Under the pieces are notes generated by a model. The model was not told the origin of the DNA and searched no databases. It saw nothing but the letters and a program-made list of their open reading frames with translations. Of a DNA stretch of 64,000 bases, positions 13,400 through 61,234 are shown piece by piece. The translations under genes were made by a program, and so were the position numbers. The number at the start of each line of letters is the position of its first letter. Position 1 is the stretch's first letter. The stretch lies in the NCBI RefSeq assembly GCF_988243305.1, contig NZ_OZ547136.1; one strand, 5' to 3'.

Positions 13400-15057
13400 T
13401 ACCTGTATGGAGCACAGCCTGCCCGGACTGGGCAGAGCGCCTGAAAAAGGGGCTGTCGATTATTCCGGATCCGATTTATCCGGACGAGGCCGCACATGCC
13501 CTGGCGATTTTTAAACAACTGCGGATTGTGGATGCACCTGGTAGCCCTACGTTCGGGGAGTCCTGTGCACCGTGGGTGTTTGACCTGGTGGCGGCCCTGT
13601 TTGGCTCCTACGATGCGCAGACCGGTGTACGCCATATCAAGGAAGTTTTTATCCTTATCCCCAAGAAAAACTCGAAGTCCACGCTGGCCGCGGGGATCAT
13701 GATGACTGCACTGTTACTGAACTGGCGGCAGGCGGCGGGTTACACGATTCTGGCCCCGACTGTGGAGGTGGCGGCCAACGCCTTCAACCCTGCCCGGGAT
13801 ATGGTACGACGTGACGATGATCTGGATGACCTCTGCCAGGTACAGACCCATATCCGGACCATCACCCACCGAGTGACGGACACCACCCTGAAGGTGGTGG
13901 CAGCCGATCCGAATACGGTGTCCGGTATCAAGTCCGTGGGTACGCTGATTGATGAGTTGTGGCTGTTTGGCAAGCAGTGCAAGGCGGAGGACATGTTACG
14001 TGAAGCCATAGGCGGCCTTGCCTCCCGCCCGGAAGGGTTTGTGGTGTATACGACCACCCAGTCGAATGAACCGCCCGCCGGGGTGTTCAGACAGAAACTG
14101 CAGTACGCCCGGGATGTGCGCGACGGCAAAATTCATGATCCGCACTTTCTGCCGGTGATATTTGAACACCCTCCTGAAATGGTGGAAAGCGGGGCTAACC
14201 TGCTGATGGAAAACCTCGCCATGGTCAATCCGAATCTCGGCTATTCAGTGGATGAGGCCTTTCTGTACCGGGAGTACCGTAAAGCCCGGGAAGCCGGTGA
14301 AGAGACATTCCGGGGGTTCATGTCAAAACACGCCAATGTGGAAATTGGTCTTGCCCTGCGCTCTGACCGCTGGGCGGGGGCTGATTTCTGGGAAGAGCAG
14401 GGCCGTTGTATCAGCCTGGACGATATCCTGCGTCGTGCTGATGTGGTGACGGTGGGGATTGACGGCGGAGGGCTGGATGATCTGCTGGGGATGTATGTGA
14501 TTGGGCGTGACCGGGAGACCCGCGAATGGCTGGGCTGGGGCCATGCCTGGGCGCATGAAACCGCGGTGGTCCGACGGAAGAGCGAGGCGTCCCGGTTTCA
14601 GGATCTTGTTGCCTGTGGAGATATGACCATTGTCCGGCGTGTCGGGGATGACACGGCGGAAGTGGCGGAATATGTGCGTCGCATTCATGAGGCTGAGTTA
14701 CTGGACCATATCGGTATTGACCCGTCAGGGGTGGGGCAGATTCTGGATTCACTGGCGGAAGCCGGGATCCCCGACGGAATTGTGGTGGGGATAAGCCAGG
14801 GCTGGAAACTGGGCGGGGCCATTAAAACCACCGAGCGCAAACTGGCTGAAGGGGTGCTGGTGCATGGTGACCAGCCCCTGATGGCCTGGTGTGTCGGCAA
14901 TGCCCGGGTGGAGCCTAAAGGTAACGCCATTCTTATCACCAAACAGGCCAGTGGACGGGGAAAAATTGACCCGCTGATGGCGCTGTTCAATGCGGTCTCC
15001 CTGATGTCCCTTAACCCGGAACCGAAAAAGAAAGAATATGCGGTTTTTTTCATATAA
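13396..15057 (+). CDS. Terminase large subunit
   Basis: 553 aa; Walker A-like ILIPKKNSKST; acidic C-terminal nuclease-like half; size and position. Confidence 0.85.
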   Translation: MIPVWSTACPDWAERLKKGLSIIPDPIYPDEAAHALAIFKQLRIVDAPGSPTFGESCAPWVFDLVAALFGSYDAQTGVRHIKEVFILIPKKNSKSTLAAGIMMTALLLNWRQAAGYTILAPTVEVAANAFNPARDMVRRDDDLDDLCQVQTHIRTITHRVTDTTLKVVAADPNTVSGIKSVGTLIDELWLFGKQCKAEDMLREAIGGLASRPEGFVVYTTTQSNEPPAGVFRQKLQYARDVRDGKIHDPHFLPVIFEHPPEMVESGANLLMENLAMVNPNLGYSVDEAFLYREYRKAREAGEETFRGFMSKHANVEIGLALRSDRWAGADFWEEQGRCISLDDILRRADVVTVGIDGGGLDDLLGMYVIGRDRETREWLGWGHAWAHETAVVRRKSEASRFQDLVACGDMTIVRRVGDDTAEVAEYVRRIHEAELLDHIGIDPSGVGQILDSLAEAGIPDGIVVGISQGWKLGGAIKTTERKLAEGVLVHGDQPLMAWCVGNARVEPKGNAILITKQASGRGKIDPLMALFNAVSLMSLNPEPKKKEYAVFFI

Positions 15058-15083
15058 CCCTGTTCACACTGTAACCATCACGA

Positions 15084-15103
15084 ACCGCTCCGGCGGTTTT
15101 TTT
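15084..15103 (+). terminator. Terminator-like hairpin with T-run between terL and the capsid gene
   Basis: ACCGC-TCCG-GCGGT followed by TTTTTTT, then RBS GGAGG. Confidence 0.45.
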
Positions 15104-15120
15104 ATTTTCAGGAGGCTGAT

Positions 15121-17058
15121 GTGACTCTTAAACGGGCCTGTTCCCTGCTGACGGTGAAATCCTTCAGTGAGGATGAACGGGTGATCACCGGGATTGCGTC
15201 AACGCCTTCTCCGGATCGGGATGGTGACATCCTGGAGCCGGAGGGCGCGGAGTTTGGCAGTGCGATCCCGTTTCTCTGGCAGCATGACCATTCCCGCCCG
15301 GTGGGGCAGTGTACGGTGCGCCGGGTCAGCGAAGGGCTGGAAATCACGGCAACACTGGTGAAGCCCGTACCGGATATGCCGTCGCAACTGGCTGCCCGGC
15401 TGGATGAGGTCTGGGCGGCCATTAAGACCGGGCTGGTCAGGGGGCTGTCCGTGGGCTTCCGTCCCCATGAATACACCTTTCTGGACGGAGGCGGACTGCA
15501 TTTTCTGCGCTGGGAACTGATGGAGGTGTCTGCCGTCACCGTGCCCGCGAATGCGGAATGCACCATCCGGACCATTAAATCTTACGACCGCCCGTTTTCT
15601 GCCGCGTCCGGCAACCGGAAACCGGTGGTGAAAATCGCATCTTCTGCCGGCGCTGCGGCACAGTCAACAACCGTTTTTCATAAGGAAAAGACCATAATGA
15701 ATATTGGCGAACAGATTAAAAGTTTTGAAAACAAGCGTGCAGCGCTGGCAGCCTCCCTTGAGGAGGTCATGACCAAAGCCGCAGAGGAAGGGCGCACGCT
15801 GGATGTGGAGGAGGAAGAGCATTACGACAACACCGCAGCGGAAATCCGTCAGGTGGATGCGCACCTGAAGCGCCTGCGTGAACTGGAAGCCGGTAAGGCC
15901 GCCACGGCGCAGCCGGTGAAACAGGCCGGTAACGGGAATGTGGCCGCGGTGGCTTCTGCGCCGGTGATCCGTGTGGAGCAGAAACTGGATAAGGGGATTG
16001 GCTTCGCCCGCTTTGCCAAATCGCTGGCTGCGGCTAAAGGCGTCCGATCTGAAGCCCTGGAAGTGGCCCGTCGTCAGTATCCGGATGACAGTCGTCTGCA
16101 TCATGTCCTGAAATCGGCAGTGGGCGCGGGGACCACCACGGATCCGCAGTGGGCAGGCAGCCTGTCTGAATATCAGGAATACGCACAGGACTTTATTGAT
16201 TACCTGCGTCCGCAGACCATTATCGGGCGATTTGGTCAGGGCGGGATCCCTGCACTTCGTCAGGTGCCATTCAATATCCGTGTGCACGCCCAGGTGTCCG
16301 GCGGTGCTGCCGGCTGGGTGGGTGAGGGTAAGGCAAAACCCCTGACGAAGTTTGATTTTGAATCCATCACCTTCAGTCATGCGAAGGTGTCGGCCATTGC
16401 GGTACTGACGGAAGAATTGATCCGTTTTTCCAGTCCGGCTGCTGATGCACTGGTCCGTAATGCGCTGGCGGAAGCGGTGGTGGCGCGTCTGGATACAGAC
16501 TTTGTGGACCCGAAAAAAGCCGCAGTGGCAGATGTCTCCCCGGCGTCCATCACCCATGATGTGAAGGGCACGGCATCAACCGGTAACCCGGATGCGGATG
16601 CAGAGGCTGCGTTTGGACAGTTTGTGGCAGCAAACCTGCAGCCCACCGGTGCGGTCTGGCTGATGTCCAGCACCAATGCCCTGGCACTGTCCATGCGTAA
16701 AAATGCGCTGGGTCAGAAGGAATACCCGGACATGACCCTGCTGGGTGGCTCCTTCCAGGGGCTGCCGGTGATTGTCTCCCAGTACGTGGGTGACCAGCTG
16801 GTGCTGGTGAATGCCCCGGATATTTATCTGGCGGATGACGGCGGCGTGGCAGTGGATATGTCCCGCGAGGCATCACTGGAAATGCAGTCTGAGCCGACCG
16901 GCGACAGTACCACGCCGTCCCCGGTGGAGCTGGTTTCCATGTTCCAGACAGGCAGCGTGGCCATCCGTGCGGAGCGCTGGATCAACTGGCGTCGTCGCCG
17001 TACTGCGGCGGTGGCGGTGATCACCGGAGTGAACTACGGCAGTGCGTCCGGCGGCTGA
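15121..17058 (+). CDS. Prohead protease (HK97/S78 family) fused to scaffold-like region and major capsid protein
   Basis: N-terminus ITGIASTPSPDRDGDILEPEGAEF...PFLWQHD protease signature, central coiled-coil acidic segment, C-terminal HK97-fold capsid-like region. Confidence 0.75.
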   Translation: MTLKRACSLLTVKSFSEDERVITGIASTPSPDRDGDILEPEGAEFGSAIPFLWQHDHSRPVGQCTVRRVSEGLEITATLVKPVPDMPSQLAARLDEVWAAIKTGLVRGLSVGFRPHEYTFLDGGGLHFLRWELMEVSAVTVPANAECTIRTIKSYDRPFSAASGNRKPVVKIASSAGAAAQSTTVFHKEKTIMNIGEQIKSFENKRAALAASLEEVMTKAAEEGRTLDVEEEEHYDNTAAEIRQVDAHLKRLRELEAGKAATAQPVKQAGNGNVAAVASAPVIRVEQKLDKGIGFARFAKSLAAAKGVRSEALEVARRQYPDDSRLHHVLKSAVGAGTTTDPQWAGSLSEYQEYAQDFIDYLRPQTIIGRFGQGGIPALRQVPFNIRVHAQVSGGAAGWVGEGKAKPLTKFDFESITFSHAKVSAIAVLTEELIRFSSPAADALVRNALAEAVVARLDTDFVDPKKAAVADVSPASITHDVKGTASTGNPDADAEAAFGQFVAANLQPTGAVWLMSSTNALALSMRKNALGQKEYPDMTLLGGSFQGLPVIVSQYVGDQLVLVNAPDIYLADDGGVAVDMSREASLEMQSEPTGDSTTPSPVELVSMFQTGSVAIRAERWINWRRRRTAAVAVITGVNYGSASGG

Positions 17059-27873: not shown

Positions 27874-28451
27874 ACACGGCAGCGGAAGCCATCCGGGCGC
27901 TGTCGTTACAGGTGCCGGGCTTTCGCCGTCAGATGAACGAAGGCTGGTACCAGATACGTATTGCCGGTTATGACACGGCACCGGAGGCGGTGTACGCCCG
28001 TCTTCACGAACAGCTGGGTGAGGGAACGGTCATCCATATTGTGCCGCGACTGGCCGGGGCCGGAAAGGGTGGACTGCAGATTGTGCTGGGGGCGGCAGCC
28101 ATCGTGGGCTCTTTCTTCACTGCCGGGGCATCAATGGCGTTATGGGGTTCAGCCCTGGCAGCCGGTGGTTTTTCTGCCACCACGATGCTGTTTTCACTTG
28201 GAGCCAGCATGATTCTGGGCGGTGTGGCCCAGATGCTGGCCCCGAAGGCAAAAACACCGGATTACCGCGCAACGGATAACGGCAGACAGAACACGTACTT
28301 TTCCTCGCTGGATAACATGATTGCCCAGGGGAACCCGATGCCGGTGCCTTACGGGGAAATGCTGGTTGGCTCCCGCCGTATATCCCAGGACATCAGCACC
28401 CGTGATGAAGGCGGGGGCGGAACGGTCGTGGTTATCGGGCGACAGGGATAA
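27771..28451 (+). CDS. Tail assembly protein I
   Basis: 226 aa; glycine/alanine-rich hydrophobic C-terminal half; overlaps the K 3' end as in lambda. Confidence 0.7.
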   Translation: MATTNAFCLASPPLARICLHGDLQRFGRRLSLYVNTAAEAIRALSLQVPGFRRQMNEGWYQIRIAGYDTAPEAVYARLHEQLGEGTVIHIVPRLAGAGKGGLQIVLGAAAIVGSFFTAGASMALWGSALAAGGFSATTMLFSLGASMILGGVAQMLAPKAKTPDYRATDNGRQNTYFSSLDNMIAQGNPMPVPYGEMLVGSRRISQDISTRDEGGGGTVVVIGRQG

Positions 28452-28793
28452 AACATAAAAAAATCCCGCAGTGATCGCGGAGCTGCGGGGACAGACAAAT
28501 GAAGATCAATGTTAAGGAGTTGTTTTTGTTACTCGGGCAAAAAAACACTAACGCAGCGAAATTATAAGCGCCACAGTCAGTGTGTGAAAATGTGAAGATA
28601 TTCAGAATTTTTATGCCATTACCGGTTTTAACCAACAGGATTATCGGTGGGCATGAAAGAAAACCCCGGTATCTGCTGATACCGGGGTTTCTCTTTAGCA
28701 TGGCAGAAATGTGTTTCATGCTTTTCGGACGAAGGATATCCGACTTCTGTACGGAATGGCAAGTGGCGGTTAATTTATTCAGGGGAAGGCTGT

Positions 28794-31700
28794 ATGGGAA
28801 AAGGTGGCGGTAAGGCACACACGCCTCGTGAGGCGAAGGATAATCTCAAATCCACGCAGATGATGAGCGTGATTGATGCGATTGGTGAGGGACCGATAGA
28901 TGGCCCGGTGAAAGGCCTGCAGAGTATTCTGGTGAACAAAACCCCGCTGACGGACACGGACGGTAATCCCGTGATACACGGTGTGACCGCGGTCTGGCGT
29001 GCCGGGGAGCAGGAGCAGACACCACCGGAAGGCTTTGAGTCCTCCGGCTCTGAAACTGTACTGGGTGTCGAAGTGACCAGGGCAAAACCGGTAACACGCA
29101 CCATTACGTCAGCGAACATTGACCGCCTGCGGGTGACCTTCGGGGTGCAGTCACTGGTGGAGACCACGTCAAAGGGTGACCGTAATCCGTCCTCTGTCCG
29201 TCTGCTGATTCAGTTACAGCGTAACGGTAACTGGGTGACAGAAAAGGATGTCACCATTAACGGCAAGACCACCTCACAGTTCCTGGCCTCGGTGATTCTG
29301 GATAATCTGCCTCCCCGCCCCTTTAACATCCGGATGGTCAGGGAGACGGCGGACAGCACCACGGACCAGCTGCAGAACAGAACGCTGTGGTCGTCATACA
29401 CCGAAATCATCGATGTGAAACAGTGCTACCCGAACACGGCCATTGTGGGGATGCAGGTGGATGCGGAGCAGTTTGGTGGTCAGCAGATGACGGTGAACTA
29501 CCATATCCGCGGTCGCATCATCCAGGTGCCGTCAAACTATGACCCGGAAAAACGCACGTACAGTGGTATCTGGGACGGCAGTCTGAAACCGGCATACAGC
29601 AACAATCCGGCCTGGTGTCTGTGGGACATGCTGACTCACCCGCGCTACGGCATGGGAAAACGTCTGGGGGCGGCGGATGTGGACAAGTGGGCGCTGTATG
29701 CCATCGGGCAGTACTGCGACCAGATGGTGCCGGATGGCTTCGGGGGCACCGAGCCGCGGATGACCTTCAATGCGTACCTGGCACAACAGCGTAAGGCGTG
29801 GGATGTTCTCAGTGATTTCTGCTCGGCGATGCGCTGTATGCCGGTATGGAACGGCCAGATGCTGACGTTTGTTCAGGACCGCCTGTCGGATGTGGTGTGG
29901 CCGTACACCAACAGCGATGTGGTGGTGGATGATAACGGCGTGGGGTTCCGCTACAGCTTCAGTGCCCTGAAGGACCGGCACGCGGCGGTGGAGGTGAATT
30001 ACACCGACCCGCAGAACGGCTGGCAGACCTCCACGGAACTGGTGGAAGACCCGGAAGCCATACTGCGCTACGGACGCAACCTGCTGAAGATGGACGCGTT
30101 CGGCTGTACCAGCCGCGGTCAGGCCCACCGTGCCGGACTGTGGGTGATAAAGACCGAACTGCTGGAAACGCAGACGGTGGATTTCACGCTCGGGTCTCAG
30201 GGGCTGCGGCACACACCCGGTGACATTATTGAAATCTGTGATAATGACTATGCCGGGACCCTGACCGGCGGACGTGTCCTGTCCATTGATGCTGCCACCC
30301 GCACCCTGACGCTGGACCGTGAGGTTACCCTGCCGGAGACAGGTACATCGGCGGTGAACCTGATTAACGGCAGCGGTAAGCCGGTGAGTGTGGACATCAC
30401 CGCACACCCCGCGCCGGACCGGATACAGGTCAGTACCCTGCCTGATGGTGTGGAGACATACGGGGTGTGGGGACTCTCCCTGCCGTCACTGCGCCGTCGC
30501 CTGTTCCGCTGTGTCTCCATCCGGGAAAACACGGACGGCACCTTTGCCATCACGGCGGTGCAGCACGTACCGGAAAAAGAAGCCATCGTGGATAACGGTG
30601 CCCGCTTTGAGCCGCAGTCAGGTTCCCTGAACAGCGTCATCCCACCGGCAGTGCAGCACCTGACGGTGGAGGTGAGCGCAGCTGACGGCCGGTATCTGGC
30701 GCAGGCGAAATGGGACACGCCGCGGGTGGTGAAGGGTGTGCGCTTCAGTCTGCGCCTGACCAGTGGTAAGGGAACGGATGCCAGACTGGTGACCACCGCC
30801 ATCACCGCAGACACGGAGCACCGTTTCAGCGGCCTGCCGCTCGGGGAATACACCCTGACGGTGCGGGCGATAAACAGCTATGGCCAGCAGGGTGAACCTG
30901 CCACCACCACCTTCCGGATTGCCGCACCGGCAGCACCGTCGCGGATTGAGCTGACGCCGGGCTATTTTCAGATAACCGCAACGCCACATCTTGCCGTTTA
31001 TGACCCGACGGTACAGTTTGAGTTCTGGTTCTCGGAAAAGCGGATTGCGGATATCAGGCAGGTTGAAACCGCAGCCCGCTATCTTGGCTCGGCGCTGTAC
31101 TGGATAGCTGCCAGTATCAATATCAAACCGGGCCATGATTATTATTTTTATATCCGCAGTGTGAATACTGTTGGCAAATCGGCATTCGTGGAGGCTGTCG
31201 GTCGGGCGAGCGATGATGCGGAAGGTTACCTGGATTTTTTCAAAGGAGAAATCGGGAAAACACATCTGGCCCAGGAGCTGTGGACGCAGATTGATAACGG
31301 TCAGCTTGCGCCGGACCTGGCTGAAATCAGGACGTCCATTACGAATGTCAGCAATGAAATCACGCAGACCGTCAATAAAAAACTGGAAAATCAGAGTGCG
31401 GCAATCCAGCAGATACAGAAAGTTCAGGTTGATACAAATAATAACCTGAACAGCATGTGGGCCGTGAAACTGCAGCAGATGCAGGACGGACGCCTTTATA
31501 TTGCGGGTATCGGTGCCGGTATTGAGAATACGCCAGCAGGAATGCAGAGTCAGGTGCTGCTGGCGGCAGACAGGATTGCGATGATTAATCCTGCGAATGG
31601 CAACACAAAGCCGATGTTTGTTGGTCAGGGCGATCAGATATTTATGAATGAAGTGTTCCTGAAATATCTGACGGCTCCCACCATTACCAGCGGCGGTAAT

Positions 31701-32267
31701 CCTCCGGCATTTTCCCTGACACCGGACGGGCGGCTGACGGCGAAAAATGCCGATATCAGCGGTAACGTGAATGCGAACTCCGGGACGCTCAACAACGTCA
31801 CGATTAACGAGAACTGTCGGGTTCTGGGAAAATTGTCCGCGAACCAGATTGAAGGCGATCTCGTTAAAACAGTGGGCAAAGCTTTCCCCCGGGACTCCCG
31901 TGCACCGGAGCGGTGGCCATCAGGGACCATTACCGTCAGGGTTTATGACGATCAGCCGTTTGACCGGCAGATTGTTATTCCGGCGGTGGCATTCAGCGGC
32001 GCTAAACATGAGAAAGAGCATACTGATATTTACTCCTCATGCCGTCTGATAGTGCGGAAAAACGGTGCTGAAATTTATAACCGTACCGCGCTGGATAATA
32101 CGCTGATTTACAGTGGTGTTATTGATATGCCTGCCGGTCACGGTCACATGACACTGGAGTTTTCGGTGTCAGCATGGCTGGTGAATAACTGGTATCCCAC
32201 AGCAAGTATCAGCGATTTGCTGGTTGTGGTGATGAAGAAAGCCACCGCAGGCATCAGTATCAGCTGA
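28794..32267 (+). CDS. Host specificity / central tail fibre protein J
   Basis: 1157 aa; lambda J-like N-terminal and central regions; divergent C-terminus. Confidence 0.9.
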
Positions 32268-36214: not shown

Positions 36215-36798
36215 TGGCATTCAGAATGAGTGAACAAGCACGGACCATAAAAATTTATAATCTGCTGGCCGGAACTAATGAATTTATTGGTGAAGGTGAC
36301 GCATATATTCCGCCTCATACAGGTCTGCCAGCAAACAGTACCGATATTGCACCACCAGATATTCCTGCTGGCTTTGTGGCTGTTTTCAACAGTGATGAGT
36401 CATCGTGGCATCTCTTTGAAGACCATCGGGGTAAAACGGTTTATGACGTAGCGTCAGGGGACGAGTTATTTATTTCTGAACTCGGTCCGTTACCGGAAAA
36501 TGTTACCTGGTTATCGCCGGAAGGGGAGTTTCAGAAGTGGAACGGCACAGCCTGGGTGAAGGATACGGAAGCAGAAAAACTGTTCCGGATCCGGGAGGCG
36601 GAAGAAACAAAAAACAACCTGATGCAGGTAGCCAGTGAGCATATTGCGCCGCTTCAGGATGCTGCAGATCTGGAAATTGCAACGGAGGAAGAAACCTCAT
36701 TGCTGGAAGCCTGGAAAAAGTATCGGGTATTGCTGAACCGTGTTGATACATCAACAGCACCTGATATTGAGTGGCCTGCAAATCCTGTCAGGGAGTAA
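36214..36798 (+). CDS. tfa: Tail fibre assembly protein (Tfa)
   Basis: 194 aa; TAATG overlap with stf; Tfa-like sequence. Confidence 0.8.
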
Positions 36799-46869: not shown

Positions 46870-46896
46870 AAAAAAAAGCCCGCTCATCAGGCGGGC
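46870..46896 (-). terminator. trp attenuator (3:4 terminator hairpin plus U-run)
   Basis: On the minus strand: AGCCCGCCTGATGAGCGGGCTTTTTTTT between trpL and trpE. Confidence 0.95.
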
Positions 46897-46939
46897 TGGG
46901 TATCTGATTGCTTTACGCATGGTGAATACACTGCCCGTT

Positions 46940-46984
46940 TCAGGAAGTGCGCCACCAACCTTTCAGTACGAAAATTGCTTTCAT
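46940..46984 (-). CDS. trpL: trp operon leader peptide
   Basis: Minus-strand ORF encodes [14 protein letters not shown] with tandem Trp codons. Confidence 0.97.
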
Positions 46985-60862: not shown

Positions 60863-61234
60863 TTATCATCATTCTTATTACCCATTTTTAATGAATTACA
60901 GGGCTTTTAATACACCGCAGCAATAACAGGTTGAGTTATCTCAACACAAAGTAATAACCGTTAAAGGTGTAGCCTATGATCAACACAAATATGAAATATT
61001 GGTCCTGGATGGGTGCATTTTCTCTGTCGATGCTCTTCTGGGCCGAACTCCTCTGGATCATTACTCACTGATCCCTGACCCCGCTGCGGCGGGGTTTTCA
61101 TTTGCTTTGCCACAAGGTTTCTCCTCTTTTATCAATTTGGGTTGTTATCAAATCGTTACGCGATGTTTGTGTTATCTTTAATATTCACCCTGAAGAGAAT
61201 CAGGGCTTCGCAACCCTGTCATTAAGGAGGAGCT

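Follow-up and report, generated by a model that had tools for sequence, protein, structure and literature searches.

The gap between tail genes I and J

The window analysed here is a 64,000-nucleotide stretch of contig NZ_OZ547136.1 (assembly GCF_988243305.1) that contains a prophage. Tail gene I of this prophage ends with a TAA stop codon at 28449-28451 and gene J starts at 28794, which leaves an I-J gap of 342 bp (28452-28793). The RefSeq annotation of a chromosome with a 100% identical gap agrees with these boundaries. The I-J gap of phage lambda (NC_001416) is 60 bp long (15445-15504), I occupying 14773-15444 and J beginning at 15505. In the window J is an intact ORF of 1157 amino acids (28794-32267, plus strand); in NZ_CP032789, whose I-J gap matches at 100% over 361 compared bp, the annotation makes gpJ a 3473-bp pseudogene with a frameshift. 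None of the ORFs in the gap is kept among the variants described below, the start codons and frames of the candidates differing from one variant to another, and this bears out the earlier note, which had seen no convincing protein-coding ORF here.

The left part of the gap carries, on the minus strand, a gene that we call pasB after the published small RNA that it matches. A consensus scan found a sigma-70 promoter at 28561-28588, made up of a -35 element TTCACA (28588-28583) and a -10 element TATAAT (28566-28561) that together match at 11 of 12 positions and are separated by a 16-bp spacer. The transcription start was placed about 7 nt downstream of the end of the -10 element, at G 28554, and the predicted primary transcript would run from there to the end of a U-run at 28457, a length of about 98 nt. 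A stem-loop at 28465-28489 (hairpin 1) was detected both by a terminator scan and as an inverted repeat. Its 7-bp arms (28465-28471 and 28483-28489) are followed on the minus strand by seven U residues at 28463-28457, which read as A7 (28457-28463) on the plus strand. The scan called hairpin 1 a minus-strand intrinsic terminator, with a stem of 6-7 bp and the U7 tract, as had been supposed when the hairpin and its A-run were first noticed and taken for the terminator of a leftward transcript. The 3′ end of pasB lies five bases from the gene I stop codon. When folded, the RNA forms the 3′ terminator hairpin and leaves its centre mostly open; as a whole the fold is ordinary compared with shuffled sequences (z = -1.02).

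Directly upstream of the pasB -35 element is a conserved box, ATGTGAAGAnnTTCAGAAnTTTTAT (28590-28614), which occurs once in the window. It contains a CRP-like dyad, TGTGA-N6-TCAGA (28591-28606), which differs from the CRP core at one position. Taken alone, this dyad is not rarer than expected by chance. Its centre lies 44.5 bp upstream of the predicted pasB start, near the usual class II position but not at it. It may be that CRP controls pasB, and such control would be compatible with the published finding that PasB is more abundant under a non-activating growth condition.

The right part of the gap is dominated by a perfect 13-bp palindrome at 28661-28690 (hairpin 2), which was found on both strands as an inverted repeat and by folding. 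Its arms, 28661-28673 and 28678-28690, are 100% complementary and enclose a 4-nt loop, and they contain the 12-bp stem at 28662-28689 that the earlier note had described. The palindrome is flanked by an A-rich run on the left (28652-28660) and a T-rich run on the right (28688-28697). One copy of the 28-nt palindrome is present in the window, against 0.00 expected from shuffled sequences. The fold of the plus strand from 28600 to 28700 has a free energy of -42.6 kcal/mol (z = -5.75), and that of the minus strand around hairpin 2 has z = -6.96. The minimum free energy and centroid structures of 28600-28700 also contain a stem-loop on the plus strand to the left of hairpin 2 (AUGCCAUUACCGG...UCGGUGGGCAU, 28610-28657); to its right, the remainder of the module and the J leader occupy 28698-28793 on the same strand. 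Hairpin 2 has a GC-rich stem of 13 bp, and its U-tracts (UUUCUCUUU and UUUUCUUUC) are interrupted and can partly pair with the A-tract. Because of this interruption the terminator scan did not call hairpin 2.

Promoter-like sites were more frequent than expected, with three found in 600 bp against 0.5 expected in the consensus scan. One is a weak minus-strand site to the right of hairpin 2, TTGCCA (28762-28757) and TATCCT (28738-28733) with an 18-bp spacer, which matches at 9 of 12 positions. On the plus strand, the scan called no promoter that would make the stretch from the box to the hairpin an sRNA, and none conserved across the classes of gap was seen by eye. A search of Rfam 15 gave no match in the gap at gathering thresholds. 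The best match in the gap at E ≤ 1 was a Streptococcus sRNA, a generic terminator-like match of 27 bits where 48 are required.

Comparison of gap variants showed that the left and right parts reassort independently of each other, and the conserved box is the exact joint between them. We therefore had to give up the idea, put forward at first sight of the locus, that the gap is a single structured insert. Very probably it consists of two juxtaposed modules: the published pasB gene (approximately 28452-28614, minus strand) and a module carrying a terminator-like hairpin ahead of J (approximately 28606-28793, 188 bp).

Identity with PasB and relation to EcOnc22-24

PasB (pathogenicity-associated sRNA B) is one of five prophage sRNAs found by RIL-seq in enteropathogenic E. 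coli E2348/69, where it is encoded by prophage PP6 (Pearl Mizrahi et al. 2021, Sci Adv; PMC8550237). Its published position is 1466343 to 1466261 on the minus strand of NC_011601.1, a length of 83 nt (Table S6, PMC8550237). When the locus was fetched it proved to be the I-J gap of PP6. Aligned to it, the published ends of PasB fall at 28539 and 28457 in the window, and 82 of the 83 bases are identical. The Northern probe used for PasB, AATCCCGCAGTGATCGCGGAGCT (Table S6, PMC8550237), matches the plus strand exactly at 28459-28481, within the terminator region formed by hairpin 1. The published 5′ end, which is based on coverage, lies 15 nt from the promoter-derived start at 28554; overall the RNA would be about 85-98 nt long. 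The sole mismatch is at 28513 in the window, position 27 of PasB, and changes C to A in the RNA. This is the position at which PasB and PasB-2 are told apart (Zhu, Shabalina and Storz 2026, bioRxiv 10.64898/2026.05.13.724894), and the window copy therefore appears to be the single-base variant PasB-2. From this near-identity we conclude that the predicted sRNA gene in the I-J gap encodes PasB, an already published sRNA.

The window and E2348/69 copies have in common the I-J locus, the strand opposite the late operon, the promoter and terminator, and the probe sequence. They differ in the right-hand module, which is short in E2348/69, giving a gap of 240 bp, and long in the window (342 bp). In the window pasB runs against the tail genes, in the gap that separates tail assembly gene I from J, and is convergent with I. 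In E2348/69, PasB was confirmed by Northern blot and its stability was Hfq-dependent, with log2 fold changes of -6.8 and -2.4 in an hfq deletion strain; its level was greater under the non-activating growth condition (PMC8550237). The same RIL-seq study reported 37 partner RNAs from the core and accessory genome, found no common target motif for PasB and assigned it no function (PMC8550237). Thus the suggestion that the gap might encode a small RNA proved correct, the RNA being PasB. The 12-bp hairpin, which had been presented as the centrepiece of the region, is not part of this RNA: hairpin 2 lies outside PasB.

PasB has also been described as sitting inside a phage structural operon with IS009 in its flanks, IS009 being the commonest structured-RNA match there (Zhu et al. 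2026, bioRxiv 10.64898/2026.05.13.724894). The window contains an Rfam IS009 match of 224.5 bits at 36557-36755 (plus strand), about 8 kb downstream of pasB and after the tail fibre gene. Further Rfam matches on the plus strand at 396-571, 5100-5349 and 6049-6238, in the early-late region, are to sok antitoxin RNA, two tRNAs and STnc100, a reported relative of PasD. Besides PasB, then, the prophage has several small-RNA genes. Matches to the Trp operon leader and STnc180 (46870-46963, minus strand, and 60903-61105, plus strand) belong to the host chromosome to the right of the prophage. This location, and the fact that the best phage matches are 'PPompW' prophages, suggests that the prophage is integrated at ompW next to trp.

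Diverged homologues of PasB occur among the published Hfq-bound RNAs of E. coli O157 Sakai. EcOnc22, EcOnc23 and EcOnc24 are Hfq-CRAC sRNA candidates from the Sakai prophages Sp15, Sp14 and Sp11 respectively; on Northern blots they are about 85 nt long, and they are destabilised in an hfq deletion strain (Tree et al. 2014, Mol Cell, Table S2; PMC4104026). The coordinates in Table S2 refer to an older version of the Sakai sequence and were converted to the current record, NC_002695.2, by means of three landmarks. The offset was +140 for AgvB1 at 1.94 Mb and about +138 for AsxR at 1.27 Mb, and the offsets of the identical HnrS copies EcOnc10/11 add up to 275, or about +137 at 2.23 Mb. The pair EcOnc21/EcOnc42 seemed at first to conflict with these values, but agrees with them if the offset is 0 at 1.18 Mb and rises to about +137 at 2.92 Mb. 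Overall, the offset of Table S2 is 0 at 1.18 Mb and +135 to +140 from 1.27 to 2.92 Mb, and coordinates used uncorrected misplace the EcOnc RNAs on the current record by about 140 nt. Taken at face value in version 2 numbering, the EcOnc22-24 peaks would be 22-24 nt away from the start of J, and the Hfq peak fell on the plus-strand hairpin upstream of the promoter. This placement was rejected, since the version offset explains it.

In the current record EcOnc22, EcOnc23 and EcOnc24 all map to I-J gaps and are antisense to the late operon; after conversion, nt 16-81 of the PasB-homologous RNA are covered by the EcOnc22 Hfq peak. The sRNA of the EcOnc22-24 type is approximately 71% identical to that of the window, a homologue and a different variant. 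It shares with the window pasB the I-J gap, the antisense strand, the box, the position of the promoter and the terminator, and differs in having a weak -35 element (TTCCGG); the box is thus present in the Sp15, Sp14 and Sp11 gaps, where the -35 is poor. EHEC homologues have been given for PasA and PasD, and none for PasB (PMC8550237). Judged by the alignment together with the coordinate conversion, PasB and EcOnc22-24 are one predicted family that occupies the I-J slot. In Sakai Sp12 (NC_002695.2 2217392-2217732) the entire long-class gap of the window is found in near-identical form, PasB-2 included. The reported Hfq-CRAC peaks include none for this copy, though the diverged Sp11, Sp14 and Sp15 copies are present among them.

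Other 'moron' sRNAs from prophages of EHEC and EPEC resemble PasB in kind. AgvB/AsxR, HnrS, PasA/C/D and DicF are likewise short Hfq-binding prophage RNAs with their own promoter and an intrinsic terminator, sit between phage late genes, are often multicopy and are expressed in the lysogen. In contrast to PasB, they lie in the Q, lysis or moron region and not in the tail operon, and they have no sequence similarity to it. Defined targets set AgvB and AsxR (anti-sRNAs at the PR′ moron site) and HnrS (which represses hha) apart from PasB, which has none. An anti-sRNA of the AgvB/AsxR type was rejected as an identification of the gap RNA because those RNAs are found at the PR′ moron site and have no sequence in common with the gap; HnrS was rejected because it corresponds to EcOnc10-12, from the lysis region.

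Distribution and variation of the two modules

The 164-bp left module was found in 1812 of 5426 complete E. coli genomes, at 5543 places and up to 11 times per genome, the identities ranging between 100% and about 70%. Among the 30 matches listed, 29 had no annotation beneath them and the remaining one carried that of the adjacent tail assembly gene. Phage records containing the left module are mainly of Stx-converting and PPompW-type phages. Had no transcript and no conservation been found, the small-RNA interpretation would have fallen; as it is, the cassette is present in a third of E. coli genomes, and transcripts of its published relatives have been seen on Northern blots by two laboratories.

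A sample of IMG/VR, consisting of 80 loci gathered through protein I and 120 through the conserved box, yielded 50 distinct sRNA sequences. The I-J position of the cassette was constant across the variants collected. The box was present in 22 of 22 gap variants gathered through protein I, that is, in a set that had not been selected for the box. All 37 of the aligned sRNA representatives fold with a 3′ terminator hairpin followed by six or seven U residues. Across these 37 variants 94.6% of the terminator stem cells are paired, compared with 30-61% in slid controls, and a G-C to A-U double change occurs once at each of two stem pairs. RNAalifold gave no consensus structure for the 37 variants, the divergent terminators being misaligned. 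The 5′ third of pasB varies among them in both sequence and fold. The most conserved columns are those of the centre, which is unpaired in most folds (ACUCC..., UUAAUCUUC), together with a 5′ GCGUUA. Short motifs in the centre stay unchanged between variants whose sRNA bodies are 60-70% identical. The conserved open centre (...ACUCCUUA...UUAAUCUUC...) is a likely candidate for the region that pairs in trans. The published view is of a low-diversity sRNA with about 1,150 near-identical copies.

Three IMG/VR loci (L150, L196 and L123) are very diverged relatives, 43-49% identical over the sRNA. They have another upstream gene and another terminator stem (CUCCCG...CGGGAG), and retain the box, the CUCCUUAAGG motif and the short-class J leader, an indication that the cassette passes from one tail module to another.

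On the J side of the box, gaps are of two unrelated classes, short and long, which combine freely with different PasB types. In short-class gaps the distance between the box and the start of J is about 105-128 nt, and the plus strand carries a terminator of the form CAGGCAYCC-N4-GGRTGCCTG-TTGTTTT, in which one stem pair varies between C-G, U-A and U-G. Long-class gaps, including that of the window, have instead the hairpin equivalent to 28610-28657, the flanked 13-bp palindrome and a further stretch of about 100 nt. Of the 5426 genomes, 1445 contain the long module, in 1-4 copies each that are at least 95% identical and always lie in the I-J gap. The idea that this module travels with one J allele was rejected, as the N-termini of J are approximately 95% identical in both classes and PasB types combine with both. 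One viral genome, L025 (IMGVR_UViG_2671180417_000014), has a 47-bp deletion between AGAAA direct repeats, equivalent to 28653-28699. This deletion removes exactly the palindrome and its flanks, and the hairpin is therefore dispensable for maintenance of the prophage sequence in at least one genome.

A stem-loop is also found at the equivalent place in lambda, where the late strand reads CCGCC-tgcg-GGCGG and then TTTTGTCATTT, immediately ahead of the ribosome-binding site of J. The lambda and short-class stem-loops resemble hairpin 2 in lying ahead of the J ribosome-binding site and in combining a GC-rich stem with a T-rich run behind it on the late strand. They have no sequence similarity to it, and their stems are of 5 and 9 bp respectively, compared with 13 bp. 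Unlike either, hairpin 2 is terminator-like on the opposite strand too, is preceded by a second hairpin and is followed by a leader of about 100 nt. We know of no published function for the pre-J stem-loop of the window, of the short class or of lambda. All the I-J junctions compared, in the short class and in lambda, have such a stem-loop ahead of J, and from the shared position and form we infer that hairpin 2 is probably the counterpart, in this prophage, of a terminator-like hairpin on the late strand whose place before J is conserved.

Proposed function of PasB and of the hairpin before J

A promoter of its own, of the sigma-70 type, and a terminator at hairpin 1 and its U7 tract make pasB in effect an RNA 'moron', one that the lysogen would express without need of late transcription. 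In a lysogen, host RNA polymerase would transcribe pasB from its promoter, against a silent late operon, and Hfq would bind and stabilise the RNA. PasB would then pair with host and accessory mRNAs through its open centre, the seed being the one that conservation suggests. Its expression, its dependence on Hfq and the 37 partner RNAs ligated to it on Hfq together lead us to regard it as a presumptive trans base-pairing regulator. During lytic growth, polymerase modified by Q would read through both terminators and produce an mRNA fully complementary to PasB, so that an effect in cis on the I-J mRNA, or titration of PasB, would be unavoidable in principle. Hairpin 2 would most likely serve as an intrinsic terminator or an RNA-end hairpin, halting before J any polymerase that lacks modification by Q; read from the opposite strand, the same hairpin would protect the pasB promoter against transcription leaving J.

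The complementarity to the late mRNA raises the question of whether PasB might work mainly in cis, pairing with the I-J mRNA in lytic growth to create a substrate for RNase III, or acting by transcriptional interference, so that J is uncoupled or lowered and the host partners are secondary. PasB is antisense to the late operon with perfect complementarity over about 85-98 nt, and the I-J position is fixed across all variants. The duplex is also by far the strongest of the window scan, at -51 kcal/mol compared with about -25 for the next matches and for shuffles; among candidate sites for the PasB centre in the window, none beat the shuffled controls except this cis-antisense site. Against such a role, PasB is abundant and Hfq-bound in uninduced cultures, where it forms chimeras with 37 other RNAs, and lambda works without it. 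The divergence of the body to 60-70% identity around fixed central motifs is moreover the pattern of a trans seed, because in cis any sequence would stay complementary. We consider a mainly cis role somewhat unlikely. The right-hand module could itself specify a second minus-strand sRNA, in tandem with pasB, running from about 28726 to about 28652 from the promoter-like site at 28762-28733 and using hairpin 2 as its terminator. That site includes the -11A and -7T, the predicted RNA would consist of a hairpin at its 5′ end, a linker rich in A (AAAGAGAAA), the stem of 13 bp and UUUUCUUUC as its tail, with the z-score of -6.96 given above, and the module is kept at 95% identity or more in the 1445 genomes. 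Such a promoter-like match is nevertheless expected about 0.5 times by chance in 600 bp, the z-score is due to the palindrome alone, and the module offers no sequence variation on which the structure could be tested. The identical gap of Sakai Sp12 has no listed Hfq-CRAC peak, and at the equivalent position the short class and lambda have a hairpin on the plus strand only. A second sRNA is thus quite unlikely, and the terminator-like role before J is preferred for hairpin 2.

That the gap is a remnant of a REP-like or mobile element, as had first been proposed, or a functionless trace of a miniature element or of an insertion, would be in keeping with the perfect palindrome, the extra DNA relative to lambda and the loss in L025 of 47 bp, palindrome included, between AGAAA repeats. 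A search for the palindrome elsewhere, which had been recommended, found it at no other site in 5426 genomes and once in the window; like the 188-bp module, it occurs only between I and J, in 1-4 copies per genome. The gap contains neither terminal inverted repeats nor a transposase, and its left half is a complete gene whose expression has been published for PasB. An origin as such a remnant is therefore very improbable. Nor does a small protein account well for the gap, whether it is a plus-strand ORF, MKINVKELFLLLGQKNTNAAKL (28499-28567), with PasB as a type I antitoxin, or an ORF of 66-77 amino acids across the palindrome that is annotated in one phage record. A 'hypothetical protein' is annotated here in phages ASU11 and PhiR12_1, and a start reading MKINV recurs in several variants. 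In the commonest variant, however, the start codon is ACG; the ORF varies from 12 to 39 amino acids with differing frames and ends, the peptide is not hydrophobic, and the gap variants hold no conserved small ORF under the antisense RNA such as a type I toxin-antitoxin pair would have. The longer ORF crosses the 13-bp palindrome and is broken by 1-nt indels in seven contigs. Either protein would be scarcely credible as the product of this region, and PasB acting in trans remains the reading that we prefer.

The element is thus real and widespread but had already been found, PasB in 2021 and its EHEC homologues in 2014. It is unannotated in the RefSeq genomes and phage records inspected and is absent from Rfam, so that those who read the sequence alone will rediscover it repeatedly; herein lies the value of an annotation. 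Our comparison goes beyond the published papers in three respects. PasB and EcOnc22-24 form one family in one I-J slot; its diversity goes far beyond what near-identity BLAST had indicated, with a conserved central motif that is a candidate for the seed; and the pasB promoter bears an invariant CRP-like box. A more comprehensive model can be drawn, in which at least five PasB sequence types (60-70% identity, EcOnc22-24 included), all with the UUAAUCUUC / CUCC core, one terminator and an invariant CRP-like box, are held under common, possibly catabolite, control by a box that is also the joint of the modules, and the long module specifies a second sRNA or a terminator that sets J; taken in its entirety we rate this as rather unlikely.
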